NCBI GenBank assembly: GCA_021650915.1
Contig: CP091279.1
Location: forward strand, 1,980,001-2,012,000
Length of the DNA stretch: 32,000 bases
Source of the DNA: Candidatus Brocadia sp.
GTDB lineage: Bacteria > Planctomycetota > Brocadiia > Brocadiales > Brocadiaceae
Direction of reading: 5' to 3'
Part shown: one piece after another, positions 1 through 29,467 of the stretch
Numbering within the stretch: the first letter of the stretch is position 1
Layout of the letters: each line of letters begins with the position of its first letter
Notes under the pieces: model-generated
Databases searched by the model: none
What the model was told of the DNA's origin: nothing
Seen by the model: only the letters and a program-made list of their open reading frames with translations
Made by a program: the position numbers and the translations under genes

Positions 1-334
1 GGGAGGCCATAACCCTGGGTGCATGGTTTGTTCGAATCGGGGAGCGGTCTTCATCAAAGGTGACATCACGAACGTAATGGAGGCTGTTTTCAATACTCCA
101 ATGTCCCCGGTTCAAGCGGAGTATGCGGGCAGGGTCTGCCTTTTGTTGCGTAAGGCTGGTAATGCCATAGACCGTTTCTTCGGTTGTTTTTTGGGATTTG
201 AGGTAGGTAAATTTTCTGTGGATACAAAAGACCTGTCCAACCAAGGGGAATGCAAGGTAATGGTTTAAATCGGCGCTGGTCCAGACCTGGCGGATTTCAA
301 TGCGTCCGTGATGTTTGTCGATGGTTTTGTGCTG
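1..334 (-). CDS. IS transposase, C-terminal DDE segment in the shifted frame (partial, runs off the window)
   Basis: Mirror of 14062-14395 in copy B, which reads QHKTIDKHHGRIEIRQVW...VYGITSL...NRGHWSIENSLHYVRDVTFDEDRS, the conserved C-terminus of ISAs1 transposases. Confidence 0.7.
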
Positions 335-1664
335 AGGGGGGAAAAGAGACCAGGCGGAGGTCTTCGATATGTTGTCTGAGAGTGGGTTGGTTGTCTTTTA
401 CGGTAAAGAGGTAATCGGCTTTCTTGTCTTCAACGAGATACCGCGCCGTCTCTTTTTGGGTATGCAGGGCATCGAGAGTGACCACCTTGTCCTTGATGTC
501 TAAGGGGTCAAGGAGGGTTTTCAGCGTTGGGATTTCGTTGGTTTTCTGGTCAACGGGACATTGGGCGATAACGACGCCTTTTTGCTGGAGAAAGGCAGAG
601 AGGAGATGGATTTTCTGCCCGTTTTCCTGGTATGCGCCCTTGAGGGTCTTCCCGTCAATGGCAATGGCGGTATCTTCTCCGGCAAGGGACTGAAGCCAGC
701 CGTAGAGGGCCGTATCTACCGCTTCGGCATCAACGTCTTGCAGGAACCTGCGGATGGTAGGTTCGCTGGGAGGTTCATAGATGCCGGTCTTTGGGTTCAG
801 ACGACAGCCGAGACGTTTGAGCATATTTTGACTGCATGATTTTGCCCACTCAGCGATAGCGGCAAAGCTTGTGGCAGAACACAGCAGGGCGCAAAGAGAA
901 AGGGTCATGACGGAGAGCTTTCTGTGTCGTTTGCCGCGTGATAGACGGGGATCAGGAATCTGGGATAATCGTTCTTTCAGTGATTCAGCATCTTTCAGAG
1001 AAAGGCGCATCGGTTTTACCTCCTTTGGGGTGTTTCGGGTTTCGAGATACGGTTCAGAGAGTTTTCTTTTCCCATCGGGAAGAACAGGACGAACAAAGAC
1101 CATCTTGGGTTGGTTGTGGGAATAATACCGGTGAGCGCATTTTGCAAACCCGCGGGTATATCCCAGAAACTCCCAGCCCTGGGCCTTGTAACAGGTGCCC
1201 TTGAAAGAGCGCGGATCGACAAAGGTCTCTGCAAGATAGATCGGATGGTTATAGATGGTTTGCCAGTCCCGGGATAATCGTTTGAGATTCCGGGCGAGGA
1301 CATAAGAGGCAAGGTTGGGTATACGGACATGAGGGAAGATCAGGAAACGACTGTTATTGGCAACAAAAGACAACCGCCGGTACTGAAGAAAGCAAGGCCA
1401 TCCTATCCAGCGGTCTCGTACCTTGCATTTGAGCGCCGCTGCTGACCATCCGATCAAGGCAAGCCATTGTCCCTGGTGTATCGCCAGATACCGGATGCTT
1501 TCCCCGATCAGAGAGTGAAGCCCAGGATAATGGTATTGGCGCATGAGTTCGTCCCATCGGGTTCGTTCTTCCCGACGGATGGGTCTTACTTCAATGCCGT
1601 GAAGACCGCCCGATGGTACTACGCTTTTTCGTGTCTCTTCATGGTTCATGAATCTATTATACAA
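297..1664 (-). CDS. IS transposase, upstream reading frame (DUF4338-like domain, ISAs1 DDE_Tnp_1-associated region, first part of the DDE domain)
   Basis: 455-aa ORF. The N-terminal ~200 aa carry DUF4338-like motifs (RWIGW, NNSRFLI, LAETFVD, YKAQGW). These are followed by IPDPR..RGKRH...FAAIAEWA and IAIDGKTLKG / LDALHTQ, typical of ISAs1/H-repeat transposases. The frame ends just after a G6 run at 336-341. Confidence 0.8.
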   Translation of the reverse strand: MYNRFMNHEETRKSVVPSGGLHGIEVRPIRREERTRWDELMRQYHYPGLHSLIGESIRYLAIHQGQWLALIGWSAAALKCKVRDRWIGWPCFLQYRRLSFVANNSRFLIFPHVRIPNLASYVLARNLKRLSRDWQTIYNHPIYLAETFVDPRSFKGTCYKAQGWEFLGYTRGFAKCAHRYYSHNQPKMVFVRPVLPDGKRKLSEPYLETRNTPKEVKPMRLSLKDAESLKERLSQIPDPRLSRGKRHRKLSVMTLSLCALLCSATSFAAIAEWAKSCSQNMLKRLGCRLNPKTGIYEPPSEPTIRRFLQDVDAEAVDTALYGWLQSLAGEDTAIAIDGKTLKGAYQENGQKIHLLSAFLQQKGVVIAQCPVDQKTNEIPTLKTLLDPLDIKDKVVTLDALHTQKETARYLVEDKKADYLFTVKDNQPTLRQHIEDLRLVSFPPSAQNHRQTSRTH

Positions 1665-2148
1665 GAACCATTTTGAAAAAGTCAGTTTATTCCTTTTCTT
1701 TTTTACGTGTCAGTACTTGCGCTTATACTTGACGTAGCCCTGATATGTCACGGTACTAATCGTTTTCGTTTGCGATTACATTTTTGCCACTTTTTGTTGA
1801 TAAGGATGTCCTGCCTTTCTTGCATTCCCCGTTTACCTCCAGTATTGTTGAAAGCCTGCCTGAGTGCAATTCTGACTCGAAGTAAGGGTTTTTATTAATT
1901 GTCAGAAACTCACCCACCTTTTTTACAAAGAGAACCCCGTCTTTTTCCAATCGTTACCGTTCATTCCATAAACAGATTTCCACATCTTCTTTTCGTCGAT
2001 TGTGATTACGAATAATCCACCCCTGATTCCAGAGATTCGTTAGGCTTTGAAATTCACCACGGCAATACATCCTCCCCTATTTTTAAATATTTTTGTCACC
2101 TTCTTATTTCTTAAAGCGATGGAATGATTACATGCATAGGAATTTCAA

Positions 2149-2383
2149 GGTTGCGGTTGTAGAGCGACGAGGTTCGTCGCTCTGCATCGAGAAGGGCACC
2201 AAGGGTCTCATTGAAGAGACCCTGTCGCAGCACAGCCGCAACCAAATTTCCTTGATGAAAGCGGGGAGATTGCTTCGGAAAAGGCCCTCGCAATGACACC
2301 GGCCATGCACTTTGATGGCACACGGCACGTTGTCATTGCGAGCACATTCGATGTGCTCAGGGTATAAACTCCGCGAAGCAATC
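2149..2383. ncRNA. Helix-rich non-coding element (candidate structured RNA or REP/MITE-like element); strand unknown
   Basis: Nested complementary segments. 2149-2160 pairs with 2232-2243 (12 bp, one G-U) and encloses hairpins 2161-2183 (10-bp stem) and 2203-2222 (7-bp stem). 2268-2277 pairs with 2374-2383 (10 bp) and encloses the perfect 12-bp pair 2287-2298/2331-2342, an inner 5-bp hairpin 2302-2319, and hairpin 2340-2358. Only short overlapping ORFs occur here. Confidence 0.3.
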
Positions 2384-2883
2384 CTTCACTCACAAAAAAC
2401 GGCGCCTCCTGAAAGGGGCACCCAATGCAAGGCGCTGTGGGTTGAGTTATAACTTTTTCTAAAAGTGTGTCACGTTTTAAAAAGCCGTTTCGATATGTAA
2501 TATAGAGAACGCACTATCTGAAAAGACATGGTATCTGTGTGGTATGAAAGGCAAAAAATATTTCCTATTGCCTGTCACAGTTTTATTTCTGAGTGCGATA
2601 TACAAGATAGGAAAAATGCTGAGAAGAGGAAAACATTTTCCGTGTACTTCTCTAAAGGAGCAGGAAGCTTCTCAATATTTCCTAAATTGCGTTAAACAGC
2701 AGGCATTTTATTCTTTCTGTATGCAGAATGATCTTTAATTTCTCAAGGAGAAAAAAGCTCTTGTAGGCATGGCGAGCCAAACAAAAAGTATTCTAACGTT
2801 TTTACACATTTGTAGTGCATAGGTACGGATATATATACTCAAGATGCTCATAAAATGTGAATTTTAAATTGATAATAAGGTGG

Positions 2884-2908
2884 CACGGACAAACTCTGTT
2901 TGTCCGTG
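2884..2908. other. Perfect 11-bp stem / 3-nt loop hairpin
   Basis: CACGGACAAAC-TCT-GTTTGTCCGTG, 75 nt upstream of the 2984 start codon. No U-tract follows on either strand, so it is not a canonical terminator. Confidence 0.5.
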
Positions 2909-2983
2909 TTGACCTACTATAAATCACAAATTGTGAGCCTGTGGAGTATCGTTTGTCTGTTTTTTTAGAAAGGAGTTGTCATT

Positions 2984-4792
2984 ATGAATATAACGAGAAT
3001 GTATTTAAATTTGGCCATCGTCGTATTATTGTTTTATCCAATGCTTTCGTTTGGAAAAGACTGGAGATTCCCGGCAAATAAACTTCTACATCAAACGGGA
3101 CGTAAAGAACAATTTAAGCGTGACGATGCAACATGCTGTGGATGGTCTGCAAATACTATCCTGGATATGCCAGGTTATCTTACTTATGGCCCTTACATCA
3201 ATGTATTACCAGAGGGTAAGTATGCCGTACATTTTACTCTTTTTGTTGACAATAATTCTGCAGACAATTTGGTGGTCGCTTCTATAGATGTTTACGATTC
3301 TACTGTAGATAAAATTCTGGATATCAAGCATATTCGCCGAAAGGAATTTGATGCGCCATTTACAGAAAAGATATTTTCGCTTTATTACCAACAATTAGCA
3401 GGGCATACGATTGAATTTCGCACGTACTTCCATCGCACGAGTTATCTGTTTCAGCGTGATGTTGTTGTGCAATCTCCAGATGCCCCGAAAAAACTTTCTG
3501 ATGGTTTTTGCTACGATGAAATGCAAATAACTGCAATCTATCGTAATGGGATCGATCATTGCAAATCTGTTTATTTGGTCGCCAATTGCGGAAAAGCAGA
3601 TGGTGTTGGCGTAAATATACACTCATACGATTCCTTTGGTGGTGTTATGAATGATTCCTCAGATTGCAGTTGCGAAGGTAGTCCATTTTCTTTTGATTTT
3701 ACGGAACTGTCTCAAAGCAGATTGTGGTTTCGTGCTACATTTGGACCCGCTCAACGCAACTATGATTTGGTAAATTTAGCTTTTGATTTTGAGAAGGATT
3801 TCATTGACAGTTTTCAGTTTGATGGTGACAGGTATTATCTTAACGATGCTAAGAGTCCAATCTACAAATCAGGGGATACATACAATAATATTCCTAAGGT
3901 ATACGACATAACAGGTTTGGAGGGAGATAAAAATGTAGGTGTTGCCAAGATTAAGTCTCATGCTTCGTGGGGAGAAGTAACTGGTCCATATGGTGCAGTA
4001 CGGATTACAATAACAAACGCATCCCCTTATTCCTTGCACTTTCACCATCATGATGGAACCAACAATATGGATATACAATTTGGAAGGGTTGAATATGGAG
4101 ATACGGTTTTTGTCGAAGGTGAAATTGTGATTTCAGACGGCACAGCTATTTTGCAGAATGAAAATGATTCGGATTTAAACGTAGTGGGTGATTATCTGTT
4201 TTCTTGTGATTTAGACAATGATAGTCAACATGATAAAATCGCCTGGCGTTCATCTGATGGGACATGGTTTTACAAATTATCATCCGAAAATTTTCAAATA
4301 ATCCATAGCACACAATGGGGTCTTCCCAACGATATACCCTTTGTTGATGATTTTAATGGAGACAGGATCACAGACTTTGTAGTGTATCGTGAGAATGGAG
4401 ACTTTCCTATTTGGGCGCTTTTGTATGATTACACAAAAAGCTGGGGAGCGACGGATAACTATGAAATTAAGCAGTGGGGTTTAAAAGGCGATATTCCCGT
4501 ACCGGCTGATTTCAATAAGGATGGAAAAGCAGAAATTACGGTATGGCGCTCCAGTGAAGGTAACTGGTATGTTTTGAATAGTGGTACATTTGAAGATAAT
4601 GACTGGTATGTTGTTCAATGGGGTTTGCCGGAAGACAAGCCATTTTCTGCCGACATCGATAATGATGGGTTTGCTGATATGTGTGTGTGGCGCAATAGTA
4701 CGAAAATGTATTATTTTATCCCCTCTTCTGGTTCATGTCCTGCTGGCACCCAACAACACCGGCAGGGATGTGAAACAGATTCGTTGAAGTAA
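2984..4792 (+). CDS. Secreted protein with four C-terminal FG-GAP/VCBS-like repeats and an unrecognised N-terminal region
   Basis: AGGAG RBS 9 nt upstream. Signal-peptide-like N-terminus (MNITRMYLNLAIVVLLFYPMLSFG). The C-terminal ~190 aa contain four D-x-[DN]-x-D-G...W/Y-R...W-Y units (DLDNDSQHDKIAWRSSDGTWFY, DDFNGDRITDFVVYR, ADFNKDGKAEITVWRSSEGNWYV, ADIDNDGFADMCVWRN). Confidence 0.75.
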   Translation: MNITRMYLNLAIVVLLFYPMLSFGKDWRFPANKLLHQTGRKEQFKRDDATCCGWSANTILDMPGYLTYGPYINVLPEGKYAVHFTLFVDNNSADNLVVASIDVYDSTVDKILDIKHIRRKEFDAPFTEKIFSLYYQQLAGHTIEFRTYFHRTSYLFQRDVVVQSPDAPKKLSDGFCYDEMQITAIYRNGIDHCKSVYLVANCGKADGVGVNIHSYDSFGGVMNDSSDCSCEGSPFSFDFTELSQSRLWFRATFGPAQRNYDLVNLAFDFEKDFIDSFQFDGDRYYLNDAKSPIYKSGDTYNNIPKVYDITGLEGDKNVGVAKIKSHASWGEVTGPYGAVRITITNASPYSLHFHHHDGTNNMDIQFGRVEYGDTVFVEGEIVISDGTAILQNENDSDLNVVGDYLFSCDLDNDSQHDKIAWRSSDGTWFYKLSSENFQIIHSTQWGLPNDIPFVDDFNGDRITDFVVYRENGDFPIWALLYDYTKSWGATDNYEIKQWGLKGDIPVPADFNKDGKAEITVWRSSEGNWYVLNSGTFEDNDWYVVQWGLPEDKPFSADIDNDGFADMCVWRNSTKMYYFIPSSGSCPAGTQQHRQGCETDSLK

Positions 4793-4813
4793 ATAACATC
4801 GATCAATAATAGG

Positions 4814-4918
4814 AAGGATGGGATTTTGCAGGTATAGAATAGAGTTAATCGCCCAGTGAAGAATGGGTGGTAAAATGATCCTGTAAGTAAATCTGATGTC
4901 TGCAAAATACCCATCCTT
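4814..4918 (+). ncRNA. Clamped stem-loop element immediately upstream of the RT gene (candidate RT-associated RNA or regulatory structure)
   Basis: AAGGATGGGATTTTGCAG (4814-4831) is complementary to CTGCAAAATACCCATCCTT (4900-4918): 18 bp with one bulged base. It encloses 68 nt that include an inner CGCCCA/TGGGTG hairpin. The element ends 59 nt before the RT ATG. Confidence 0.35.
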
Positions 4919-4976
4919 ATGGATATTCGCGAATTTGCGGTGTCAATTTTATAGTGAATGTTTAAGGAGGGTAATT

Positions 4977-5888
4977 ATGTTTTGGAAGAGAAATAATCTT
5001 TACAACGATATTCATACGGACCAGAATTTAACGGCTGCCTGGAACGCTATAAAATCAAATGGCAAGGTAGCTGGTGTTGATGGTATTAGTGTCCAGCACT
5101 ATCAGGGGAATCTGTTCTTAAATCTGAAATTGCTGCAAAGGGAATTAGAAGAAAGGACCTATTCACCGCAGCCAATTAAAAGGTTTAGTTTTACTAAGGC
5201 GGATGGCTCAAAACGCATGCTTGGAATCCTGACCGTAAGGGACAAGATTGTACAAAGGGCATTGTATCAGGTAATCGAGCCAATATTTGAGAGGTCATTC
5301 GAGGATATCAGCTATGGGTACAGAAAAAACAGAAGTGTAACTGAGGCGATTGAGCATCTGAAGGGTTATATTGATCAGGGAAACCACTGGATTGCCCACG
5401 GTGATATTGCGCGGTTTTTTGATAATATTGATACCGTTCAGTTAGGGAAACAGATAACAAGAAAGATTGACAATCAAATGATATTGCATCTGATCCACGG
5501 ATGGCTTGATCAGGAAGGCGCTTTTTCCAAAACTGAGGCAGCGCCAGTAAGGAAAAAAGGGATTTTGCAGGGTGGCATCCTGTCGCCTCTTTTCGGGAAT
5601 ATCTATCTTGACTGTTTTGATAAAAAAGCCACTGCGCAAGGACTCAATATTGTCCGGTATGCCGACAACGTAATCCTGATTGCAGAAAACCGGTGTGAGG
5701 CAAAAAAGGGCGTAAATCAGATACGACAGTTATTGAGGGAGGCAGACCTGCATTTAAACGAAAGAAAGACAATTATTACCCATTTAGAGAATGGTATTAC
5801 CCTCCTTGGGAAGAGGCTGATCCTGTGTAAGCATGGCAAGGAGGTAACGTTGTCAATTCAGGACGCACAAAAACCACAGCTTCGATGA
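4977..5888 (+). CDS. Reverse transcriptase, group-II-intron-like / CRISPR-associated type, short form without a thumb/X domain
   Basis: ATG at 4977 is preceded by AAGGAGG, so the ORF-track start at 4896 is probably an extension. RT motifs are in order: SPQPIKRFSFTKADGSKRMLGI, RDKIVQRAL, GDIARFFDNI, GILQGGILSPLFGNIYL, VRYADNVILI (YADN, not YADD), LHLNERKT, ITLLGKR. The protein ends about 20 aa after the last motif. Confidence 0.85.
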   Translation: MFWKRNNLYNDIHTDQNLTAAWNAIKSNGKVAGVDGISVQHYQGNLFLNLKLLQRELEERTYSPQPIKRFSFTKADGSKRMLGILTVRDKIVQRALYQVIEPIFERSFEDISYGYRKNRSVTEAIEHLKGYIDQGNHWIAHGDIARFFDNIDTVQLGKQITRKIDNQMILHLIHGWLDQEGAFSKTEAAPVRKKGILQGGILSPLFGNIYLDCFDKKATAQGLNIVRYADNVILIAENRCEAKKGVNQIRQLLREADLHLNERKTIITHLENGITLLGKRLILCKHGKEVTLSIQDAQKPQLR

Positions 5889-5933
5889 GCAGCGGTGCAC
5901 AGGAGAGTAACAAATGCAATCGGAGGAGATGAC

Positions 5934-6923
5934 ATGGGCATTGTATATATTATAGAGCAGGGGGCAACCATTACCAAAGCAGATGGCCGCCTGGTGGTAA
6001 GAAAAGATAGCCGGGTGCTTGAGGATATGCCGTCTAAGGATGTTGAACGGCTGGTTATCTTTGGAAACGTGCATATTACAACACCGGCAATGAAGTATCT
6101 CCTGGAAAGTGGCGCCGATGTAAGTTTTTTCAGCATCCACGGGAACTACAAGGGCCGTCTTCAGCCAAGGCTTTGCAGTGATGCGGAATTGAGACGGTTG
6201 CAATACCAAAAATCCTCCCACAGGGAAACGTGTCTGGAGGTAAGCAAAGCGTTCGTTTCCGCCAAATTAAGGAATATGGAAACATTCCTGAAGCGGCAAA
6301 AAAGAAAAACGGCACAGGCGCTGAGCGCCCTTGATACCATAAAACAGGGTTTGCTTGATATACAAAACGTACCCGACATCCATTCCTTGAGAGGGTATGA
6401 AGGCAGCTCTTCAGCAAGGTATTACAAAGCATTGAGCAGTCTGTTGCAAAAGGATTTTCAGTTTCAAAAGCGTACGCGCCGTCCGCCTGCCGATGAGGCA
6501 AACGTTCTTCTGAGCCTTGGATATACCCTCCTGTTTAACAGGGTGTATGGAGCGCTTAACGTTGTGGGACTTGACCCATACCAGGGGATGTACCATCTTG
6601 CAGATCGCGGGCACGCAACGCTGGCCTCTGATTTTATGGAGGAATTTCGTGTGCTCATTGTTGATTCTGTAGTGCTTCTCCTTGTAAACACCCGAGAAAT
6701 TACCGTAAAGGATTTCTCCCATAGCCAGGGGAATATTATGTTAACCCATGATGGGCTGAAGAAAGCCCTGTCGCGCTTCGAGGATAAGATGAATACCGTA
6801 ATAATGCACACAAGAATTTCAATGCGGGTATCGTATCAGCAATGTATCGAAATACAGGCAAGGCAGTTTGCCAGGTTCATTCGTGGTCATGATACAGCCT
6901 ATATGCCTTTTGTATTGCAATAA
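5934..6923 (+). CDS. cas1: CRISPR-associated endonuclease/integrase Cas1
   Basis: GGAGGAG RBS 5 nt before ATG 5934. Cas1-typical features: N-terminal beta-domain (VYIIEQGATITKADGRLVV), RGYEGSSSARYY, RRPPADEANVLLSLGYTLL, GMYHLADRGHATLASDFMEEFR. The candidate catalytic E/H/D residues are present. Confidence 0.9.
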   Translation: MGIVYIIEQGATITKADGRLVVRKDSRVLEDMPSKDVERLVIFGNVHITTPAMKYLLESGADVSFFSIHGNYKGRLQPRLCSDAELRRLQYQKSSHRETCLEVSKAFVSAKLRNMETFLKRQKRKTAQALSALDTIKQGLLDIQNVPDIHSLRGYEGSSSARYYKALSSLLQKDFQFQKRTRRPPADEANVLLSLGYTLLFNRVYGALNVVGLDPYQGMYHLADRGHATLASDFMEEFRVLIVDSVVLLLVNTREITVKDFSHSQGNIMLTHDGLKKALSRFEDKMNTVIMHTRISMRVSYQQCIEIQARQFARFIRGHDTAYMPFVLQ

Positions 6924-6950
6924 GTCGGTAACACAGCGGAGAACGTTTCA

Positions 6951-6968
6951 GTCCCTGCCGGCAGGGAC
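6951..6968. other. Perfect 18-nt palindrome (8-bp stem hairpin) in the cas1-cas2 spacer
   Basis: GTCCCTGCCGGCAGGGAC, preceded by GTTTCA. An A-rich tract follows rather than a T-tract. Confidence 0.5.
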
Positions 6969-7010
6969 GCCTTCTCGGACAAAACAAAAAACCTTCATCA
7001 GGGGGCAACG

Positions 7011-7295
7011 ATGAACAAGCTTTTCACCGTAGTGGCCTATGATATATCAGATGACAAGAGAAGAACAAAATTGCACCAGGCGCTGAAAAAGTATGGAAAG
7101 GCAGTTCAATTCAGTGCGTTTGAATGTTTGGTAACCGCAAAAGAGTTTGCAGGGATGATTGGGACAATACATGGTCTTTTAAAAAAGGAGGAAGATAAAT
7201 TGCGTATTTATACCTTGTGTGATGGTTGCTACAAAGGAATAAAAAATTTAGGCACTGGCGAGATAGCAAAAGAACGACATACGGTTGTCGTTTAA
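7011..7295 (+). CDS. cas2: CRISPR-associated endoribonuclease Cas2
   Basis: 94 aa. Contains FTVVAYDISDDKRRTKL...VQFSAFEC...LRIY, the classic Cas2 ferredoxin-fold signature with the N-terminal Asp. Confidence 0.9.
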   Translation: MNKLFTVVAYDISDDKRRTKLHQALKKYGKAVQFSAFECLVTAKEFAGMIGTIHGLLKKEEDKLRIYTLCDGCYKGIKNLGTGEIAKERHTVVV

Positions 7296-7331
7296 GGTAT
7301 TTTGTTGTTTTTATTGATGTGGAGGGAATCG

Positions 7332-7739
7332 ATGAAACGTGTAGCCATTATTTTAGATAAAAATTTAAAAACCGGACTCATTGGCAATGCTTCTGCCATT
7401 CTTATGGGAGCTGTTGCGCGTTGTCATCCAGAACTCTACCCTTCTGACAATATTTTGGATAGAGACAATCAACGCCATGCTGGTATTCGCTACAACACGA
7501 TCCTATTAAAAACAAGTCAGGTTCAATTGTTACGGTTGGCGGAAAAAATACCGTGTGAATATCCACAGGTAACACAGATACTTTTTTCTCAGATTGGACA
7601 AAATCTGAATAATGCATTTGAAGAATATAAAACTCAAATCAACAAAAGGAATACTACAGAGACCAAACCAGTGGGAGTTATTCTCTTCGGAGAGGATGCA
7701 GAAATCAGAGTGCTGACAAAAAAGTATTCATTACTTTAG
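7332..7739 (+). CDS. DUF2000-family protein (PTH2-like fold family, function unknown)
   Basis: GGAGGG RBS 5 nt before ATG 7332. The pattern MKRVAIILDKNL..G...NASAIL..., the central ...HAGI...ILL block and the C-terminal VGVILFGEDAEIRVLTKKYSLL match my recollection of DUF2000 (Atu0240-like) proteins. Confidence 0.55.
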   Translation: MKRVAIILDKNLKTGLIGNASAILMGAVARCHPELYPSDNILDRDNQRHAGIRYNTILLKTSQVQLLRLAEKIPCEYPQVTQILFSQIGQNLNNAFEEYKTQINKRNTTETKPVGVILFGEDAEIRVLTKKYSLL

Positions 7740-7811
7740 CCACGCCTGTGAAGTTTTCTGATAGCAATGAGGGGGTATAAATCCAAAGGAAAATAACGTA
7801 AGGAGAAAAAG

Positions 7812-8372
7812 ATGGAAAGAAAATTTGATCAAAACATACATAAAGTAGGGACTCTTGGCCCACAAGGTACAAGTAGTGAGCAGGCTGCGATACATTTTGT
7901 CCAAAAAACATTACGGGGGAAGGGGACAATTGTTCTAAAAGATACCTTTGAGGAGGTTTTTACGGACTTAACAGAAGGAACCGTCGATTATGCAATAGTG
8001 CCAGTGGCATATCCAGGTATCAATCAGTTTTACATGACTCAGTATATAGAAGATATTTTAAGTTATCGTTTTGATACTCCTGTATATGAATTGGTTACGA
8101 ACAAGAACGACATAGTAAAAACAAATCAAGTAACAGTAGCATTGCATCCGGCTACAAAGCCATTGATTCCCTTCCTTTGCGAGGACTACTTGGCTGTGAG
8201 TCTTGTAACGGCAACCTCAACAGCTGTCGCAGCTAAATTAGCTAAGGACTGCAAAGTTGATCTTGCTATTACAAACGAAGAATCAAGAAAGAGGCATCAG
8301 CTCACCGTTCTTAAGCCTTGGGGACGGATAGGAATGTCTTGGATTGTATTTGGCAATAAAAACTTCATTTAA
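7812..8372 (+). CDS. Prephenate dehydratase-fold protein without an ACT domain (BacA/AerD-type prephenate decarboxylase-like)
   Basis: AAGGAG RBS. 186 aa. Contains VGTLGPQGTSSEQAA, DYAIVPVAYPGINQFYM, FDTPVYEL, ATSTAVAAKLAKD..VDLAITNE, MSWIVFG. This resembles the PDT domain and, in length and motifs, the non-aromatising decarboxylases of the bacilysin/aeruginosin pathways. Confidence 0.5.
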   Translation: MERKFDQNIHKVGTLGPQGTSSEQAAIHFVQKTLRGKGTIVLKDTFEEVFTDLTEGTVDYAIVPVAYPGINQFYMTQYIEDILSYRFDTPVYELVTNKNDIVKTNQVTVALHPATKPLIPFLCEDYLAVSLVTATSTAVAAKLAKDCKVDLAITNEESRKRHQLTVLKPWGRIGMSWIVFGNKNFI

Positions 8373-8477
8373 CGAGGTAAGTATTTAAATACTGCAGATA
8401 AAATGAGGAAGAAATAAAAATATACTCAATACTATTCTGTTATTACGAATGTTGTTTAAATTAAGGGGACAAAAACA

Positions 8478-9107
8478 ATGAATAATGTTATCGTAAATAA
8501 TTCAAAAACTCAAATCATAAGAGATGGTTTCACTCAAAGTTCACTTTCATTAGGAAAAAAAATTATACTCCTTTTCAACGTATTAAAAGATAGTAATTTA
8601 CCACTCCATAGTCATTCTCATATACAATTTGGATATAATTTCTACGGCGCATATGATTTCTTCATAGATGGCAAAAAATATAATGCAAAACCAAGCCAAA
8701 GTTACTTAATAAACTCAAAGATTAGCCATTCTGCAATTGCAACATCTGATTATTATTCATTAGACTTTAAGTATCTTGGAAATCCATTGGAAAAGGTTTG
8801 CCAGTTTGATGTTTTTGAAAAAGAAATAAGTAATGAAGAATGTAAATTTCAAAAAATTCATTTAGAAAATACGATAATTTTAAAATATACTCCTATAAAA
8901 GAAATAGTTCAACTAAAGCTCACTTCCGGAGATAAAGAGAGGTTTTTTGTTGTAGTAAAGAAAAGATGTCAAATAAAAATAAATGTTTCATCTGCAGAAT
9001 TGTTGCCGATGAATATTTATGAAATCAACAGTTCTAATCACGATATAAATTTTGAACTTTTTAAAGAAGGAGACGAAATATTTTTATTTATAATAAAATC
9101 TACATGA
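8478..9107 (+). CDS. Cupin-domain protein (very AT-rich gene)
   Basis: 209 aa. Cupin-like metal motif LPLHSHSHIQFGYNFYG...FFIDGKKY...ISHSA. A-rich region with an AAGGGGA RBS upstream. Confidence 0.5.
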   Translation: MNNVIVNNSKTQIIRDGFTQSSLSLGKKIILLFNVLKDSNLPLHSHSHIQFGYNFYGAYDFFIDGKKYNAKPSQSYLINSKISHSAIATSDYYSLDFKYLGNPLEKVCQFDVFEKEISNEECKFQKIHLENTIILKYTPIKEIVQLKLTSGDKERFFVVVKKRCQIKINVSSAELLPMNIYEINSSNHDINFELFKEGDEIFLFIIKST

Positions 9108-9319
9108 TTCAACCAACGGCTTTAGATATTTTTGATTATACATGCCTCAAAAGATACCTAAAATATGGCATATTATATATGCGAAAGTACTTTTATTGCA
9201 CTCATAAACAGTGGAATGTCTTGTTGATAATAATTAGTCTTGCAGCGAAATTTAATTGATAATTATAGACAAAAAACCCATCTTAGCAAAATACTTGTTC
9301 TGTTGAAGAGGATTGACAT

Positions 9320-11455
9320 ATGAATGACAACTACATCACAAAGATTGCTGAAGAACTTCGTTTGACGGCAAAGCACGTGCTGGCAACCGCCGCACTCCTT
9401 GGGGAAGGCGCTACCGTTCCCTTCATTGCCCGGTACCGAAAGGAGGCTACCGGGTCACTGGATGAGGTTGCTGTTACAACGATTCGCGACCGTCTTGACC
9501 AGCTCAGGGAATTGGATAAACGGCGGGAAGCCATTCTGAAATCCCTCGGGGAGCAGGGAAAGCTTACCGAGGAACTGAAGGGCGGCGTCCTTGCGGCTGA
9601 GACGATGGCGCTGCTGGAGGATATTTACCTGCCGTATCGTCCGAAACGCCGCACCCGGGCTACCATTGCCAGGGAAAAGGGATTAGAGCCGCTGGCCCAG
9701 GGTATCTTTGCCCAGGGTGAACCTGACGCATGTCTTACGGCTCAGGCCTTTATCAATGCCGAAAAAGGGGTCGATACCGCTGAAGATGCGCTTACAGGCG
9801 CCCGCGATATTGTCGCTGAATGGATCAATGAGGACCTCAATGCCAGGGCAAGGATTCGTGAGCTCTTCCTCGCAAAAGGGGTCTTCAGGACAAAAGTAAT
9901 TTCCGGCAAGGAAGAAGAGGGACTGAAGTATAAGGATTATTTTGCGTGGGAAGAGCCCGTGTCAACAGCGCCATCACATAGAATTCTGGCGATGAGACGC
10001 GGAGAAAAGGAGGGGTTCCTGAGCCTGCGGGTTACCCCGCCGGAAGAAGAAGCCCTAACTATTCTCGAAGCGCTCTTTGTAAAGGGGACGGGGGAATCCT
10101 CCCGGCAAGTCAGGATGGCAGCCCACGATAGCTACAAAAGGCTCCTATCTATATCCATGGAAACGGAGATCCGCCTTGAGACCAGGAAAAGAGCGGATGA
10201 AGAGGCGATCAGGGTGTTTGCGGACAATCTCAGACAACTCCTGCTTGCGCCACCCCTGGGACAAAAAAACATCCTTGCCATCGATCCGGGATTTCGCACC
10301 GGATGTAAAGTGGTGTGTCTGGACAAACAGGGCAAGCTGGTTCATACTGATATGATCTATCCCCATCAGTCTGAGAAAAACACATCGGAAGCAGCAGCAA
10401 AGATTCTTGCCCTCTGTGAAAAATTTCAGGTAGAGACCATCGCCATTGGAAATGGCACGGCGGGCAGGGAAACGGAGGCATTTGTACGAACGCTTGCCCT
10501 GCCGGAAAAGATTCATACCGTCATGGTAAATGAAAGTGGCGCCTCCGTCTATTCCGCATCGGACGTGGCACGTGAAGAATTCCCTGACCAGGATGTAACG
10601 GTGCGGGGGGCTGTGTCCATTGGCAGACGGCTTATGGATCCCCTTGCAGAGCTGGTGAAGATCGATCCCAAATCGATTGGCGTGGGACAATACCAGCATG
10701 ATGTCGATCAGGGAATCCTGAAGCGTTGTCTGGATGACGTCGTTATGAGTTGCGTGAATCTTGTTGGCGTTGAGGTCAATACGGCCAGCAAGCAGTTGCT
10801 CATGTACGTTTCTGGCCTGGGACCGCAGCTTGCCGGAAATATCGTTAAATATCGTGACGAAAACGGCCCTTTCCGGTCACGGTCGGATTTGAAAAAGGTT
10901 AGTAAATTGGGGCCAAAGGCCTTTGAGCAGGCAGCGGGCTTCCTGCGTATCAGGGACGGAGAAAACCCTCTCGACCGGAGCGCCGTTCATCCGGAGAGCT
11001 ATCACCTGGTGGATGCCATGGCAAAGGACATGAAATGCTCAGTTCTCGATTTCATGCAGGACGAGCATCTCCGGGGAAGGATCGATCTCACCAGATATGC
11101 AAACGACCTGGTAGGGTTGCCTACGCTCAGCGATATTGTAAAGGAATTGGCGAAACCAGGCCGCGACCCGAGAATGAAGTTTGAAGTATTTAGTTTTACC
11201 AGAGGAATTGACGCCATTGAGCAGGTAACACCCGGCATGAAACTCCCCGGGGTAGTAACGAACGTAACGGCATTTGGCGCCTTTGTTGATATCGGGGTGC
11301 ACCAGGACGGACTCATCCACATAAGCCAGCTTGCTGACCGCTTTGTAAAAAATCCCGGCGAGGTGGTAAAGGTGCACGAGAAAGTGACCGTTACCGTGCT
11401 GGATGTGGATCTGAAAAGGAAGAGGATATCCCTTTCCCTGAAAAAACAAACGTAA
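9320..11455 (+). CDS. tex: Tex-like transcription accessory protein (YqgF/RuvC-like, HhH and C-terminal S1 domains)
   Basis: 711 aa. N-terminal LLGEGATVPFIARYRKEATGSLDEV, central ILAIDPGFRTGCK, C-terminal S1 domain (GMKLPGVVTNVTAFGAFVDIGVHQDGLIHISQL). Confidence 0.9.
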   Translation: MNDNYITKIAEELRLTAKHVLATAALLGEGATVPFIARYRKEATGSLDEVAVTTIRDRLDQLRELDKRREAILKSLGEQGKLTEELKGGVLAAETMALLEDIYLPYRPKRRTRATIAREKGLEPLAQGIFAQGEPDACLTAQAFINAEKGVDTAEDALTGARDIVAEWINEDLNARARIRELFLAKGVFRTKVISGKEEEGLKYKDYFAWEEPVSTAPSHRILAMRRGEKEGFLSLRVTPPEEEALTILEALFVKGTGESSRQVRMAAHDSYKRLLSISMETEIRLETRKRADEEAIRVFADNLRQLLLAPPLGQKNILAIDPGFRTGCKVVCLDKQGKLVHTDMIYPHQSEKNTSEAAAKILALCEKFQVETIAIGNGTAGRETEAFVRTLALPEKIHTVMVNESGASVYSASDVAREEFPDQDVTVRGAVSIGRRLMDPLAELVKIDPKSIGVGQYQHDVDQGILKRCLDDVVMSCVNLVGVEVNTASKQLLMYVSGLGPQLAGNIVKYRDENGPFRSRSDLKKVSKLGPKAFEQAAGFLRIRDGENPLDRSAVHPESYHLVDAMAKDMKCSVLDFMQDEHLRGRIDLTRYANDLVGLPTLSDIVKELAKPGRDPRMKFEVFSFTRGIDAIEQVTPGMKLPGVVTNVTAFGAFVDIGVHQDGLIHISQLADRFVKNPGEVVKVHEKVTVTVLDVDLKRKRISLSLKKQT

Positions 11456-11610
11456 GGGAACCATTGAGTTTTTGAAAAATCTCAGCCATAGCGATGGTTG
11501 CCGCCTGGCATAGGGGGCGAACATTTGCTATAACTGTCATGCATAGCTCAGCGCTGCCGTAACCGGGTAATACTTATACATGCACACCCAATGGGACAAA
11601 TGCTTCGCCC

Positions 11611-12384
11611 TTATTTTTCCGGTAGATTCCGTACCTTGCCCACCGGCGACAGATAAATGACGAACTCATCTTTTCCATCGATCCGAAGCAACCGGTCCAG
11701 GGCTTCCTGATCATAGGCGGCAATGGCGCACGTCCCGGCGCCAATTGCCTCGCAGGCGAGATAAAGGTTCTGGCATACATGCCCTGCGTCGATAGCAATC
11801 ACCTTATGGGCTGCCAGGTGGTAGCGCCACTCCATCCGGTAAGGAATAGCCGTCCAGATGAACGTCACCGGTGCATTGCCTGGGTAGGGCTGACGGTAAA
11901 CGGCATCGACAATCTTTCTGGCAAGGCGCTCTTCGGAAAATTCAAAGAGCAATTGATGAGAAAGCGGGAGATACCGATAGACGCCCTGATCCAGCCCTTT
12001 TCCATTCAGCACGACCAGATACGTCTCAAAGGCATGCCGGCATCCTGCTGAGGGTACCGTGCGATAGGCATGACTGCCCACAACCTCCCCCCGCACACCC
12101 TGGGTCGTCCAGAGCAGAAAGGAGATTTCTTCCAGGGTAAGAGGTTCTTTGGTATATGCCCTTCGACTCTCCCGATGCCCGATTGCGGTGGTCAGATCGA
12201 TTCTGGTTATGTTTTTCCACGCGTCAGGTTTCACAAGGTCGATGCGCGGCGCATTAGCCCGATAAGGCTTTTCAATGGGCGGAACATCAGCACCCCTGTT
12301 CTGATCTGTTTGTGAAAAATCGATCTCTTTCCGGATACTATCTTTGAGAAAGTATCGATATTGTTCTATCAAATCTTCATCCAT
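11611..12384 (-). CDS. SagB-type dehydrogenase / nitroreductase-family protein
   Basis: 257 aa. Contains RESRRAY, RTVPSAGCRHAFETYLVV, YRYLPLSHQL, and a nitroreductase-fold C-terminus (AIDAGHVCQNLYLACEAIGAGTCAIAAYD). Confidence 0.75.
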   Translation of the reverse strand: MDEDLIEQYRYFLKDSIRKEIDFSQTDQNRGADVPPIEKPYRANAPRIDLVKPDAWKNITRIDLTTAIGHRESRRAYTKEPLTLEEISFLLWTTQGVRGEVVGSHAYRTVPSAGCRHAFETYLVVLNGKGLDQGVYRYLPLSHQLLFEFSEERLARKIVDAVYRQPYPGNAPVTFIWTAIPYRMEWRYHLAAHKVIAIDAGHVCQNLYLACEAIGAGTCAIAAYDQEALDRLLRIDGKDEFVIYLSPVGKVRNLPEK

Positions 12385-12731
12385 GTCCTTTATCCCTCCT
12401 TCTCATTTACGTGCGCTTGCACGTTGCAGTATAACGTCAACTGCGCCTTTTTACAAAAGAATACCCTTCTCCACAATCATGTAAAAAAACAGCTATTACA
12501 ATTGGATTATGCCTTCGGTGATTTTGTTTGAGGCCACACGTAGGGGCGAAGCGCTGCTGCCGCCTCCCCCGTTGCGGCTCCCCCTTATACCGCTGGCATC
12601 GGGGAGCATTTCCGATCTTTTGTAAACCCGGAAGGCAAAAAATGGCCGAAGAACAGGTCTACGTCAAGTATAAACGCAAGTACTGACACGTAAAAAAGAA
12701 AAGGAATAAACTGGCTTTTTCAAAATGGTTC

Positions 12732-14099
12732 TTGTATAATAGTTTCATGAACCATGAAGAGACACGAAAAAGCGTAGTACCATCGGGCGGTCTTCACGGC
12801 ATTGAAGTAAGACCCATCCGTCGGGAAGAACGAACCCGATGGGACGAACTCATGCGCCAATACCATTATCCTGGGCTTCACTCTCTGATCGGGGAAAGCA
12901 TCCGGTATCTGGCGATACACCAGGGACAATGGCTTGCCTTGATCGGATGGTCAGCAGCGGCGCTCAAATGCAAGGTACGAGACCGCTGGATAGGATGGCC
13001 TTGCTTTCTTCAGTACCGGCGGTTGTCTTTTGTTGCCAATAACAGTCGTTTCCTGATCTTCCCTCATGTCCGTATACCCAACCTTGCCTCTTATGTCCTC
13101 GCCCGGAATCTCAAACGATTATCCCGGGACTGGCAAACCATCTATAACCATCCGATCTATCTTGCAGAGACCTTTGTCGATCCGCGCTCTTTCAAGGGCA
13201 CCTGTTACAAGGCCCAGGGCTGGGAGTTTCTGGGATATACCCGCGGGTTTGCAAAATGCGCTCACCGGTATTATTCCCACAACCAACCCAAGATGGTCTT
13301 TGTTCGTCCTGTTCTTCCCGATGGGAAAAGAAAACTCTCTGAACCGTATCTCGAAACCCGAAACACCCCAAAGGAGGTAAAACCGATGCGCCTTTCTCTG
13401 AAAGATGCTGAATCACTGAAAGAACGATTATCCCAGATTCCTGATCCCCGTCTATCACGCGGCAAACGACACAGAAAGCTCTCCGTCATGACCCTTTCTC
13501 TTTGTGCCCTGCTGTGTTCTGCCACAAGCTTTGCCGCTATCGCTGAGTGGGCAAAATCATGCAGTCAAAATATGCTCAAACGTCTCGGCTGTCGTCTGAA
13601 CCCAAAGACCGGCATCTATGAACCTCCCAGCGAACCTACCATCCGCAGGTTCCTGCAAGACGTTGATGCCGAAGCGGTAGATACGGCCCTCTACGGCTGG
13701 CTTCAGTCCCTTGCCGGAGAAGATACTGCCCTTGCCATTGACGGGAAGACCCTCAAGGGCGCATACCAGGAAAACGGGCAGAAAATTCATCTCCTCTCTG
13801 CCTTTCTCCAGCAAAAAGGCGTCGTTATCGCCCAATGTCCCGTTGACCAGAAAACCAACGAAATCCCAACGCTGAAAACCCTCCTTGACCCCTTAGACAT
13901 CAAGGACAAGGTGGTCACTCTCGATGCCCTGCATACCCAAAAAGAGACGGCGCGGTATCTCGTTGAAGACAAGAAAGCCGATTACCTCTTTACCGTAAAA
14001 GACAACCAACCCACTCTCAGACAACATATCGAAGACCTCCGCCTGGTCTCTTTTCCCCCCTCAGCACAAAACCATCGACAAACATCACGGACGCATTGA
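12732..14099 (+). CDS. IS transposase, upstream reading frame (DUF4338-like, DDE_Tnp_1-associated and N-terminal DDE parts)
   Basis: 455-aa ORF differing from copy A by R4S and one I/L change (EDTA[I/L]AIDGK). Motifs as for 297-1664. Confidence 0.8.
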   Translation: MYNSFMNHEETRKSVVPSGGLHGIEVRPIRREERTRWDELMRQYHYPGLHSLIGESIRYLAIHQGQWLALIGWSAAALKCKVRDRWIGWPCFLQYRRLSFVANNSRFLIFPHVRIPNLASYVLARNLKRLSRDWQTIYNHPIYLAETFVDPRSFKGTCYKAQGWEFLGYTRGFAKCAHRYYSHNQPKMVFVRPVLPDGKRKLSEPYLETRNTPKEVKPMRLSLKDAESLKERLSQIPDPRLSRGKRHRKLSVMTLSLCALLCSATSFAAIAEWAKSCSQNMLKRLGCRLNPKTGIYEPPSEPTIRRFLQDVDAEAVDTALYGWLQSLAGEDTALAIDGKTLKGAYQENGQKIHLLSAFLQQKGVVIAQCPVDQKTNEIPTLKTLLDPLDIKDKVVTLDALHTQKETARYLVEDKKADYLFTVKDNQPTLRQHIEDLRLVSFPPSAQNHRQTSRTH

Positions 14100-14508
14100 A
14101 ATCCGCCAGGTCTGGACCAGCGCCGATTTAAACCATTACCTTGCATTCCCCTTGGTTGGACAGGTCTTTTGTATCCACAGAAAATTTACCTACCTCAAAT
14201 CCCAAAAAACAACCGAAGAAACGGTCTATGGCATTACCAGCCTTACGCAACAAAAGGCAGACCCTGCCCGCATACTCCGCTTGAACCGGGGACATTGGAG
14301 TATTGAAAACAGCCTCCATTACGTTCGTGATGTCACCTTTGATGAAGACCGCTCCCCGATTCGAACAAACCATGCACCCAGGGTTATGGCCTCCCTCAAA
14401 AATTGCATCATCAGCATCTTTCGCTCACTGGGGAGAACCGCTATCGCACAAACTCTTAGAAATTTAACCTACCAACCTCACCTTGCCCTGAAACTCCTTC
14501 GCTTATAA
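14062..14508 (+). CDS. IS transposase, C-terminal DDE segment in the +1 frame
   Basis: The frame starting at 14062 reads QHKTIDKHHGRIEIRQVWTSADLNHYLAFPLVGQVFCIHRKF...GITSL...NRGHWSIENSLHYVRDVTFDEDRS. It joins the upstream frame if one C is removed from the C6 run at 14055-14060. Confidence 0.75.
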   Translation, partial: QHKTIDKHHGRIEIRQVWTSADLNHYLAFPLVGQVFCIHRKFTYLKSQKTTEETVYGITSLTQQKADPARILRLNRGHWSIENSLHYVRDVTFDEDRSPIRTNHAPRVMASLKNCIISIFRSLGRTAIAQTLRNLTYQPHLALKLLRL

Positions 14509-18146: not shown

Positions 18147-19874
18147 GTGATGTGCTTAAAACGACGCTGGAAATTGTTTCCTGTCATAGGGTGTAAAATT
18201 ACGCTCCTAACGGTGCTTGTGTTTACTCGCGCCTTTCCTGCATATGGAGAAATACGTGGAGACTTTAACGGGGATGGTTTCTCTGACCTTGCAATTGGGG
18301 TTCCTTTTGAAGATATAACCGCGGGTACAGCAACTGTCACCGATGCAGGGGCTGTAAATGTACTCTATGGTTCATTGGCGGGACTTCAAGCATCCTCACC
18401 TGATGATCAATTCTGGTATCAGGGCGATTCGGGTGTACAAGATAGCGCTGAAAGAATAGACAGGTTCGGATATTCTTTAGGTACGGGCGACTTCAATGGC
18501 GACGGATGCGATGATTTGGCAATTGGAGTCCCGTTTGAAAATATAACGGTAGGAACAACAACCGTTAACAATGCAGGCGCTGTACAGGTGTTGTACGGTT
18601 CGTCCGTCACAGGACTCCAGACAACCTCGCCTGACGATCAGTTCTGGTGCCAGAACTGTCCAGGGGTTCGGGATATACCCGAAACAGAAGATTATTTCGG
18701 TTGGGCTTTAAGTGTGGGCGACTTCAATGGCGACGGATACGACGATTTGGCAATTGGAGTGCCCGCTGAAGATCGTGCAGGCGCTGTACAGGTGCTATAC
18801 GGTTCATCTGCGGGACTTCAGACAACCTTGACTGACGATCAGTTCTGGCATCAGGACAGTGGAGGAATCAAAGAAGCAAGAGAAACACAGGATAACTTTG
18901 GCCGGTATTTAAGTGTCGGTGACTTTAATAACGACGGGTATGATGATTTGGCAATCGGAGTCCCCGATGAAGATATAGTCGCAGGAACAAGAAACGTCCA
19001 TAATGCAGGTGCGGTACAGATTTTATACGGTTCGACTCATGGACTTCAGGCGAACGGTGTGGATGTGCCCGATGATCAGCTCTGGTACCAGGGCTATTCG
19101 GGTGTCCAGGATACGCCAGAAGCCGGGGATTATTTCGGTTCGAATTTAAGCGCCGGCGATTTCAACAATGATGGGTATGACGACCTGGCGATTGGAGTTT
19201 ATCGTGAAGTTAGTATAACAGGAACCAACAATGAGGGAGCTGTACAGGTGTTATATGGTTCATTTAACGGACTTCAAGCGAATGGTGTGGGTGCGCCTGA
19301 CGATCAGTTCTGGCAACAGGGCGGCGATGTCCACGACCATGCCGAAGAAAAAGACAATTTCGGCTTGCCTTTAGCTTCGGGAGACTTCAATAACGACGGA
19401 TATGACGATTTGGCCGTTGGAGTTTCTGATGAAGATATCATAGAAGATGAAGCAGGCCACCTTAATGATGAGGGCGCCGTAACGGTGTTATATGGTTCAT
19501 CTGATGGACTTCAGGCAAATGGCGTGAATGGTCCTGATGATCAGTTCTGGCACCAGAATAGTCCTGGAATGAGAAGTTTTGCGGAAATAAAAGATTGTTT
19601 TGGCTCATCGTTAGGTGTGGGCGACTATAATGGCGATGGAAGTGACGATTTGGCAATTGGGATTTTTAAAGAAGATGCGAGAGCAAGAAGCCTTTTCGAC
19701 GCCGGCGCTGTAGCGGTGTTATACGGTTCATCCACTGCGGGACTTCAGGTATCTGCGCCTGATGATCAACTCTGGGGACAGAATAGTCCCGGCGTCCTGG
19801 ATGAAGCAGAGGATGGGGATCATTTCGGGATGGCCTTGGCGGAGACTCATGAGGATGGAGACCTGCCGCAATAA
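18147..19874 (+). CDS. Secreted seven-repeat FG-GAP (integrin-alpha-type beta-propeller) protein
   Basis: AAAGGAG RBS. Signal-like N-terminus. Seven GD[FY]N[GN]DGxxDLA[IV]G[IV] ... GAVxVLYGS units. Confidence 0.85.
   Translation: MMCLKRRWKLFPVIGCKITLLTVLVFTRAFPAYGEIRGDFNGDGFSDLAIGVPFEDITAGTATVTDAGAVNVLYGSLAGLQASSPDDQFWYQGDSGVQDSAERIDRFGYSLGTGDFNGDGCDDLAIGVPFENITVGTTTVNNAGAVQVLYGSSVTGLQTTSPDDQFWCQNCPGVRDIPETEDYFGWALSVGDFNGDGYDDLAIGVPAEDRAGAVQVLYGSSAGLQTTLTDDQFWHQDSGGIKEARETQDNFGRYLSVGDFNNDGYDDLAIGVPDEDIVAGTRNVHNAGAVQILYGSTHGLQANGVDVPDDQLWYQGYSGVQDTPEAGDYFGSNLSAGDFNNDGYDDLAIGVYREVSITGTNNEGAVQVLYGSFNGLQANGVGAPDDQFWQQGGDVHDHAEEKDNFGLPLASGDFNNDGYDDLAVGVSDEDIIEDEAGHLNDEGAVTVLYGSSDGLQANGVNGPDDQFWHQNSPGMRSFAEIKDCFGSSLGVGDYNGDGSDDLAIGIFKEDARARSLFDAGAVAVLYGSSTAGLQVSAPDDQLWGQNSPGVLDEAEDGDHFGMALAETHEDGDLPQ
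18258..19830 (+). repeat. Intragenic tandem repeats (about 200-235 bp units) encoding the FG-GAP blades
   Basis: DNA-level recurrence of ggcgacttcaatggcgacgga...gatttggcaattggagt...gcaggcgctgtacaggtg...tacggttc across the gene. Confidence 0.7.
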
Positions 19875-22760: not shown

Positions 22761-22858
22761 TAAAGCGTCACGTATCCTGGAGAGATGCGGTGCTGCCGGA
22801 TTCCCTGATTTAGCCTTCAGGAAAAAAGACCCTTCGCACATCAATAAGGAGGTAGAGC

Positions 22859-29318: not shown

Positions 29319-29467
29319 GATGTCTCTTTCACCTTAGGCTGCCTTTGATATCGACAGTGTCTTTTAACTCCCTCAATCCAGGACGACCAGACTGGTCGCT
29401 CTACAGGGACCGAAGGGAGGTATGAAAGGCGCTTTTGCGCAAGCGTTTGAAACTTGGTAGCATGAAA

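Follow-up and report, generated by a model that had tools for sequence, protein, structure and literature searches.

A stretch of 32 kb from Candidatus Brocadia sp. (contig CP091279.1, positions 1,980,001 to 2,012,000), below called the window, carries genes for a reverse transcriptase (RT), Cas1 and Cas2 with no array of CRISPR (short palindromic repeats that are clustered and regularly interspaced) around them. We think that this is probably an ordinary adaptation module, with an unfused RT beside cas1-cas2 and of the type III-linked kind found in anammox Planctomycetes and other bacteria, and that local rearrangement in the Candidatus Brocadia fulgida lineage has parted it from the leader and array that belonged to it. 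Modules of this kind, an unfused CRISPR-associated RT together with Cas1-Cas2, are known from the work of Silas et al. 2017 and Toro et al. 2017/2018.

Five homologue neighbourhoods (L005, L006, L087, L088 and L090) were examined, and the gene order RT-cas1-cas2, with the genes co-oriented, is found in all of them as well as in the window. The closest ortholog is that of L006, where RT is 67%, Cas1 70.5% and Cas2 66% identical to the proteins of the window and Cas2 has 94 amino acids in both; the order there is an FG-GAP gene, RT, cas1, cas2, an AT-rich leader of 360 nucleotides (nt) and four repeats, GTCTGATGGGACGTCCCATATTTAATGTCACGGTAC, spaced 72-74 nt. Homology between the two in blastn is limited to 4963-6923 of the window, which is RT and cas1 (72.6%), and cas2 matches at the protein level. 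L087 has an array of eight repeats and a CARF protein 5 kb upstream, and in L088 and L089 there are arrays of 27 and 30 repeats, one on each side. In L005, whose RT is 52% identical to that of the window and has the motif FADN, the genes stand in the order RAMP, Csx19, two large RAMP proteins, Csx3-like, HicAB, RT, cas1, cas2 and Cas6, and one of the large RAMP proteins matches Cas7_IIId at 1e-161; this locus is of type III-D, with no array within 10 kb and no Cas10 gene in the 21 kb examined. L090 has no array in 12 kb, nor was any array found in the examined DNA of the relatives L102 and L103, and missing arrays are thus not rare in this group.

Directly after cas2 the window has a cassette of three genes, for a DUF2000 protein (7332-7739), a BacA-like protein and a cupin, just as an earlier reading of the letters without database searches (the sequence-only reading) had it, and Pfam agrees with these names. 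The BacA-like protein, of 186 amino acids, matches only the N-terminal 50 residues of prephenate dehydratase, which is consistent with a protein of the size of BacA/AerD-like decarboxylases. The thought that the three genes are conserved partners of the module did not survive a survey of the neighbourhoods, since the cassette is absent from all five of them. The array and type III-D contexts of the orthologs, together with this absence, argue that RT-cas1-cas2 is a regular component of CRISPR loci and that the three downstream genes are not its partners; by the same comparison the cassette is to be seen as lying outside the CRISPR module, in the place where the array should be. It is also of another composition, with a GC content (guanine plus cytosine) of 0.31-0.39 at 7.3-9.1 kb, whereas the cas genes have 0.44-0.47 and tex and the DNA beyond it about 0.5, and it was probably acquired horizontally. 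From the comparison with L006, the terminator-like hairpin at the end of cas2, the position of the junction and the low GC, we infer that leader and array may have been replaced by this acquired cassette. In its pairing of genes the cassette is reminiscent of non-aromatising prephenate metabolism with its BacA/BacB-type steps.

A draft contig from NCBI, LAQJ01000220.1, and many independent Logan assemblies have the same cas2-DUF2000 junction, and the arrangement is therefore real and widespread in the lineage, and no assembly artefact. Positions 1620-12893 of the window are 99.99% identical to the entire 11,274 bp of LAQJ01000220.1 (GCA_000987375.1), LAQJ01 being Candidatus Brocadia fulgida RU1 (Toro et al. 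2017 supplement, PMC5541045), and the contig itself is not in the list of Toro 2017 (PMC5541045). All short-read contigs that carry these genes (at most 11.3 kb) end at copies of an insertion sequence (IS). An identical RT is recorded as L3J18_08865 of Candidatus Brocadia sp., and the exact Cas1 of 329 amino acids is annotated in LAQJ01000220.1, while no exact match was found to the FG-GAP protein, to Cas1 in its long form or to the transposase of the IS.

The three genes were found intact, in one orientation and at the coordinates that the sequence-only reading had given them (Table 1), and its identifications as RT, Cas1 and Cas2 agree with Pfam, NCBIfam, PADLOC and alignments to the Protein Data Bank (PDB). 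The Pfam scan took in 25 main open reading frames (ORFs), the longest non-overlapping ones of the whole window, and PADLOC was given ten ORFs, namely the module genes, the three-gene cassette, a second RT, the two ORFs that follow this RT, and the transposase of the IS. The Cas1 ORF spans 5895-6923 and opens at a GTG at 5895, and the likely start is the ATG at 5934, as in the public annotation. It is a full-length Cas1, with a Cas_Cas1 match that takes in positions 1-282 of the 283 in the Pfam model, a TIGR00287 score of 289 bits and Cas1d as the top PADLOC model. The quoted motifs RGYEGSS, MYHLADRGH and LASDFMEEF, as well as VVAYDISDD of Cas2, are all present in the translations, and the E/H/D/E catalytic segments align with the solved Cas4-Cas1 structure 7MI4 with EG.S, YH and D..ME.FR kept, so that the proposal of an apparently intact Cas1 with candidate E/H/D residues is well founded. 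The start of cas2 is 87 nt past cas1, and Cas2 also matches TIGR01573 and has Cas2d as its top PADLOC model. RT and Cas1 are separate ORFs, with the RT stop at 5888 followed by a gap of 45 nt, and there is thus no RT-Cas1 fusion.

Table 1. Positions in the window of the module, its surroundings and the copies of the insertion sequence.
Feature	Position	Strand	Basis or remark
ISAs1-family IS, left copy, cut by the window edge	1..1742	-	Pfam DruA, DDE_Tnp_1_assoc, DDE_Tnp_1; NF033564 ISAs1 2.3e-45
ATGTCACGGTAC, candidate repeat remnant equal to the last 12 nt of the L006 repeat	1745..1756	+	identical to the 3' end conserved in the CRISPR repeat family linked to RT-associated Cas1
FG-GAP repeat protein upstream of RT	2984..4792	+	Pfam
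RT, stand-alone, group-II-intron-derived, 303 amino acids	4977..5888	+	Pfam RVT_1 1.2e-31
Cas1 integrase, 329 amino acids	5934..6923	+	Pfam Cas_Cas1 4e-90
Cas2, 94 amino acids	7011..7295	+	Pfam CRISPR_Cas2 3.4e-20
Terminator-like hairpin at the cas2 end, 8 pairs then a T-rich run	7272..7293	+	consensus scan only; weak evidence
Junction where leader and array would be expected	7296..7331	.	36 nt from cas2 stop to DUF2000 start, against 360-nt leader and array in L006
Low-GC cassette: DUF2000, BacA-like prephenate-decarboxylase-type protein, cupin	7332..9107	+	GC profile, Pfam
Same IS, right inverted copy	12654..14490	+	candidate outer end near 14490, from CAGGGC...GCCCTG terminal match

The sequence-only reading had also seen neither regularly spaced direct repeats nor a cas10, csm/cmr, cas3, cas6, cas7 or single-effector gene in the 32 kb, and both statements hold. 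Tandem Repeats Finder gave nothing array-like in the window, a repeat search gave no family of 24-40 nt copies spaced 55-90 nt, and a scan for chains of k-mers (k = 8-11, 3 or more copies at distances of 45-110 nt), which did detect the arrays of L006 and L087, found none there. The Rfam scan of the window had 0 matches at E<=1, and hence no CRISPR-DR family, and when the L006 repeat was sought in the window with at most 3 mismatches, and five repeat variants in ungapped scans, nothing rose above shuffles. Multi-copy families of direct repeats occur in the window only at 18.3-19.8 kb, where they form part of the coding sequence of an FG-GAP gene; this gene (18147-19874) has about seven coding repeats of 230 nt, 61-73% identical, which explain the multi-copy families and are no CRISPR array. 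Among the 25 ORFs scanned with Pfam there was no Cas10, Csm, Cmr, Cas3, Cas6, Cas7 or single-effector family, and among the ten given to PADLOC only RT, Cas1 and Cas2 matched cas families. No Cas10 and no Csm/Cmr (RAMP) effector genes thus lie near the module in the window, and of a leader and array in the same locus the 32 kb hold only a repeat fragment of 12 nt at 1745-1756. The rest of the window consists of housekeeping and redox genes, the second RT and two IS copies.

The left IS copy has its inner end at 1742, and this fragment, ATGTCACGGTAC, begins 2 nt past it. In a shuffle control that allowed at most 1 mismatch, 0.05 matches to it were expected in the window, and among about 0.6 Mb of loci examined for other reasons it was found only in the L006 array and in L001, a draft-genome copy of the same site. 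The identity, position and orientation of the 12-mer suggest that an ISAs1-family element could have landed in a repeat of an array upstream of the module. The suggestion that flanking IS copies cut the module off from its locus thus stands in part: there is a repeat 3' end 2 nt from the left IS, but the cas2/DUF2000 junction is itself not at an IS. The left IS was reported as a 1742-nt inverted repeat with 12654-14395, 100% complementary, although 2 mismatches can be read in the terminal 23 nt; the copies are about 99.9% identical, and recent activity or rearrangement is therefore indicated. They bracket 10.9 kb that include the housekeeping gene tex, and recombination between them could invert the bracketed segment. 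A composite transposon that carries the module was considered and rejected, since tex, with its normal GC, lies in the segment between the IS copies. An N-terminal domain of the transposase is DruA-like (Druantia). In the right copy, which is complete, the transposase is divided into ORFs of 455 and 118 amino acids; in the left copy the window edge comes before that point.

The 12 nt belong to a part of the repeat that seems to be widely kept. One genome per species was scanned for ATGTCACGGTAC occurring twice at array spacing, which gave 10 loci, and an RT gene lies within the examined 8 kb at seven of them, five of these seven with a Cas1 match too. The repeats of the 10 loci differ in their 5' two-thirds and have [AT]TAATGTCACGGTAC in common, a 3' end that may be a signature of RT-linked arrays. 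The arrays of L006 and L092-L101, which share the 3' end [AT]TAATGTCACGGTAC, are from Brocadiaceae, Thermodesulfobacteriota, Desulfobacteraceae, Nitrospirota and others, and at two Brocadiaceae loci the array is situated just upstream of an RT-Cas1 fusion of 771 amino acids. The conserved repeat 3' end AATGTCACGGTAC marks arrays beside RT-linked Cas1 genes in several phyla, and could serve as a search handle.

The remnant at the left IS also leads to another thought, which we consider possible but doubtful, namely that the locus is complete and merely split: the IS would have inserted in the array, and the rest of the array, perhaps with a type III operon, would lie immediately past the left IS, a few hundred bases outside the window. 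The 12-nt repeat end is oriented as if the array ran leftwards, the Brocadiaceae loci L097 and L098 have an array upstream of the RT-Cas1 gene in the same orientation, and about 95 nt of the left IS are estimated, by reading of the sequence, to lie outside the window. Against this, the two-repeat scan gave no locus from this genome, with the limit that the representative assembly of the species was not identified and that short-read metagenome-assembled genomes often lose arrays, and a search with the type III-D Cas7 of L005 had no protein from this genome's contig among the best 120 matches, which is weak evidence.

If, as we prefer to think, the module has been separated from its own array, the course of events might be as follows. 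In the family, Cas1-Cas2 would integrate protospacers at the leader-proximal repeat, and the RT would let spacers derived from RNA be fixed as DNA. What comes after cas2 in the closest ortholog, the leader and array, would have been lost here, with the foreign-looking low-GC metabolic cassette now in their place, and a second, upstream array would probably have been hit by the ISAs1-family element, which left the last 12 nt of one repeat. What is seen now may be a recently orphaned and locally non-functional remnant, or a module that still feeds arrays elsewhere; its genes are intact. The locus could then be read as a small case study of CRISPR locus erosion in an anammox Brocadia, in a genome rich in IS elements and RT-linked CRISPR modules, where the array would have been stripped by insertion of an island at the end of cas2 and probably also by an IS that landed in a repeat.

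Several observations weigh against a separation of this kind. The array loss is seen for 32 kb only, which end within the left IS copy, and the remnant is just 12 nt long, while a full-length repeat match at that place is at chance level compared with shuffles, the remainder being IS sequence. An FG-GAP gene precedes RT in L006 as in the window, but the two proteins are only 30% identical compared with 66-70% for the cas genes, which makes this synteny a weak one. Intact genes in many samples would agree with a retained function, too. In favour of our reading, dN/dS (the ratio of nonsynonymous to synonymous substitution rates) between the window and L006 is 0.09 for RT, 0.16 for Cas1 and 0.08 for Cas2, which shows purifying selection on the family over the long term; dS is however saturated, and the ratios therefore reflect long-term history and are silent on the time since the array was lost.

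A retained function could be one in trans, with the module integrating spacers into distant chromosomal arrays that serve type III effectors encoded elsewhere, and this we regard as a tentative alternative only. The three genes are intact with the catalytic motifs of Cas1 kept, and Silas et al. (PMC5513706) describe RT-Cas1 as an autonomous module able to work with diverse type III systems. The B. fulgida draft has two other RT-Cas1 fusions, on contigs LAQJ01000315 and LAQJ01000147 and in clades 2 and 8b (PMC5541045 supplement), and the genome therefore has other RT-linked CRISPR modules; the 3' motif of the repeats is, moreover, common to arrays of very different RT-linked modules. We could however not find any array of this genome, and the searches made by way of the RT-Cas1 fusion led to other organisms. 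Between Cas1 of the window and the Cas1 domain in the RT-Cas1 fusion of Brocadiaceae the identity is only 27%, and Cas1-Cas2 normally recognises its own leader and repeat, hence cross-use is not assured.

The RT is one of the CRISPR-associated kind. Its top PADLOC model is the CRISPR 'RT' PDLC01136 (4.5e-94), followed by the RT part of Cas1_IIIb, a model of RT-Cas1 fusions (1.9e-55), and it scores 258.6 bits with TIGR04416 (group II intron RT/maturase), under the cutoff of 300. It aligns with the group II intron RT fragment 5HHL in PDB (3.7e-41), with YADN facing YADD. Residues 6-267 align with group II intron RT fragments from PDB and about 36 residues remain after them, compared with about 160 in intron enzymes of 427 amino acids, and a thumb (X) domain is therefore absent; the protein has blocks 0-7 only and stops after block 7, with no GIIM and no maturase domain. 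Its nearest relatives, P0001-P0040, are of 303-373 amino acids and 40-67% identity and are all without a maturase domain, and beyond them come true group II intron RT/maturases with 34-40% identity to it. A metagenome scan with the alignment of the RT clade gave mostly group II intron RTs, and the only close ones were L007-L009. No intron ribozyme RNA was found in the window with Rfam (0 matches at E<=1), and with neither intron RNA nor a maturase domain the RT is no group II intron. We also rejected a retron, DRT/UG or Abi defence RT, as all such models are far under their cutoffs and well below the CRISPR RT model (for instance 49.8 bits for retron St85 versus 235). A casposon or Cas1-solo was discarded too, because no ORF has a polymerase B family match, Cas2 is present and, apart from the two IS copies, there are no long inverted repeats.

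The active site of the RT deviates from the canonical YADD, the second catalytic Asp being replaced by Asn (YADN, residues 228-231). All 7 members of the nearest subclade (P0001-P0007, which are the RT of the window and its six closest relatives) carry [YF][AS]DN, and the other members of the RT clade as well as the intron RTs carry Y[AG]DD at the same place. The remaining catalytic and nucleotide-binding blocks are kept, with D143, the QGG.LSP block, D230 and K264. Retroviral RTs need the second Asp of YxDD for their activity, but in non-segmented negative-strand RNA viruses active polymerases naturally carry GDN for the related GDD motif, and we therefore draw no conclusion of inactivity from YADN. 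A literature search for the YADN motif in RTs gave nothing relevant. Since [YF][AS]DN is common to L005 and L006, which stand in normal CRISPR contexts, the variant is older than the loss of the array here. That thumb-less RTs with [YF][AS]DN occur beside arrays and type III-D genes raises the question whether such enzymes polymerise at all.

The variant could be taken as a sign of something else than CRISPR adaptation, and the sequence-only reading had named an RT-plus-integrase unit with a non-CRISPR role as one explanation that would be new biology. With no array or effector in 32 kb, intact genes and a subclade (P0001-P0007) in which the second catalytic Asp is Asn and the thumb domain is missing, such a role, perhaps tied to the [YF][AS]DN active site, can be imagined, and if the module did work without any array it would be a new use of Cas1-Cas2. 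The same subclade includes, however, the array-bearing L006 and the type III-D locus L005, the downstream genes are not conserved partners, and the near-identical IS copies point to a recent rearrangement, for which reasons we find a non-CRISPR role very improbable. It is just as hard to believe in an array-independent RT-integrase unit that, for example, inserts RNA-derived DNA at non-CRISPR sites or acts as a sensor. The evidence speaks against this explanation, as L006, L087 and L088 have arrays and L005 lies in a type III-D locus with Cas6; orthologous modules are, in these four, largely embedded in ordinary CRISPR-Cas loci.

In comparison with published systems, the module seems most like the unfused CRISPR-associated group-II-intron-like RTs (RT-CRISPR clades 1, 9 and 13 of Toro et al. 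2017/2018 and branch 7 of Silas et al. 2017), and its orthologs occur in type III contexts (PMC5541045, PMC6013744, PMC5513706). It differs from them in that its RT has YADN and not YADD and ends after block 7, and that no array or effector is near. The acquisition of RNA spacers by an RT and Cas1-Cas2, known from RT-Cas1/Cas2 of Marinomonas mediterranea MMB-1 (type III-B) and RT-Cas1 of Vibrio vulnificus (type III-D), is the presumed role of the family of the module (PMC11014452, PMC6821258). These two are however single RT-Cas1 fusions with canonical YADD, beside arrays and effector operons, whereas the RT of the window has a gene to itself and shares only 32% identity with the RT part of a Brocadiaceae RT-Cas1 fusion. 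The Cas6-RT-Cas1 of Thiomicrospira (PDB 7KFT) matches both the RT (1.7e-32) and Cas1 (8.3e-29), but it is a three-domain fusion, and the best PDB matches here are instead 5HHL and 7UIM, both group II intron RTs, for RT and 7MI4, a type I-G Cas4-Cas1, for Cas1.

Partial loci are not rare in the literature either, as the effector complex was partial or unknown in 41 of the 110 RT-associated loci of Toro et al. (PMC5541045). The window resembles such loci, and also L102 and L103, in lacking an array or effector nearby; unlike in the other partial loci, the loss can here be pinned to a junction at most 36 nt from the end of cas2 and to an array that was probably hit by an IS. L102 (2859-5174) and L103 (1443-3758) each have a Brocadia-type RT-Cas1 fusion of 771 amino acids, the 13-15 kb examined contain neither an array nor an effector gene, and IS630-like transposase fragments stand where related loci carry the array; this is apparently another stranded RT-linked adaptation gene. 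In L090 (3376-9117) a true group II intron RT/maturase and a protein of 1444 amino acids without family match adjoin RT-cas1-cas2. The latter, in which a P-loop (GRAGSGKST), UvrD-like helicase motifs and a repeat-rich C-terminus can be read by eye, was considered as an effector and rejected.

The second RT of the window (21427-24502) has 320 amino acids and a canonical YADD and is 33% identical to the first. It reaches 360 bits against the group II intron RT/maturase cutoff of 300, yet it ends inside the maturase region, and no intron RNA was detected; it may be an intron ORF in decay, or else an RT system in its own right. The two ORFs that follow it, of 126 and 547 amino acids, have no match in Pfam, NCBIfam or PADLOC. 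A palindromic element of about 50 nt, with the core TGTAGAGCGA.GAGG.TC.TCGCTCTAC, is intergenic at 2139-2187 and again at 29372-29405 of the window. The same palindrome, at 80-84% identity, lies around the HicAB pair in L005 (8037-8084 and 9116-9165), and it looks like a REP (repetitive extragenic palindromic) element dispersed in Brocadiaceae.

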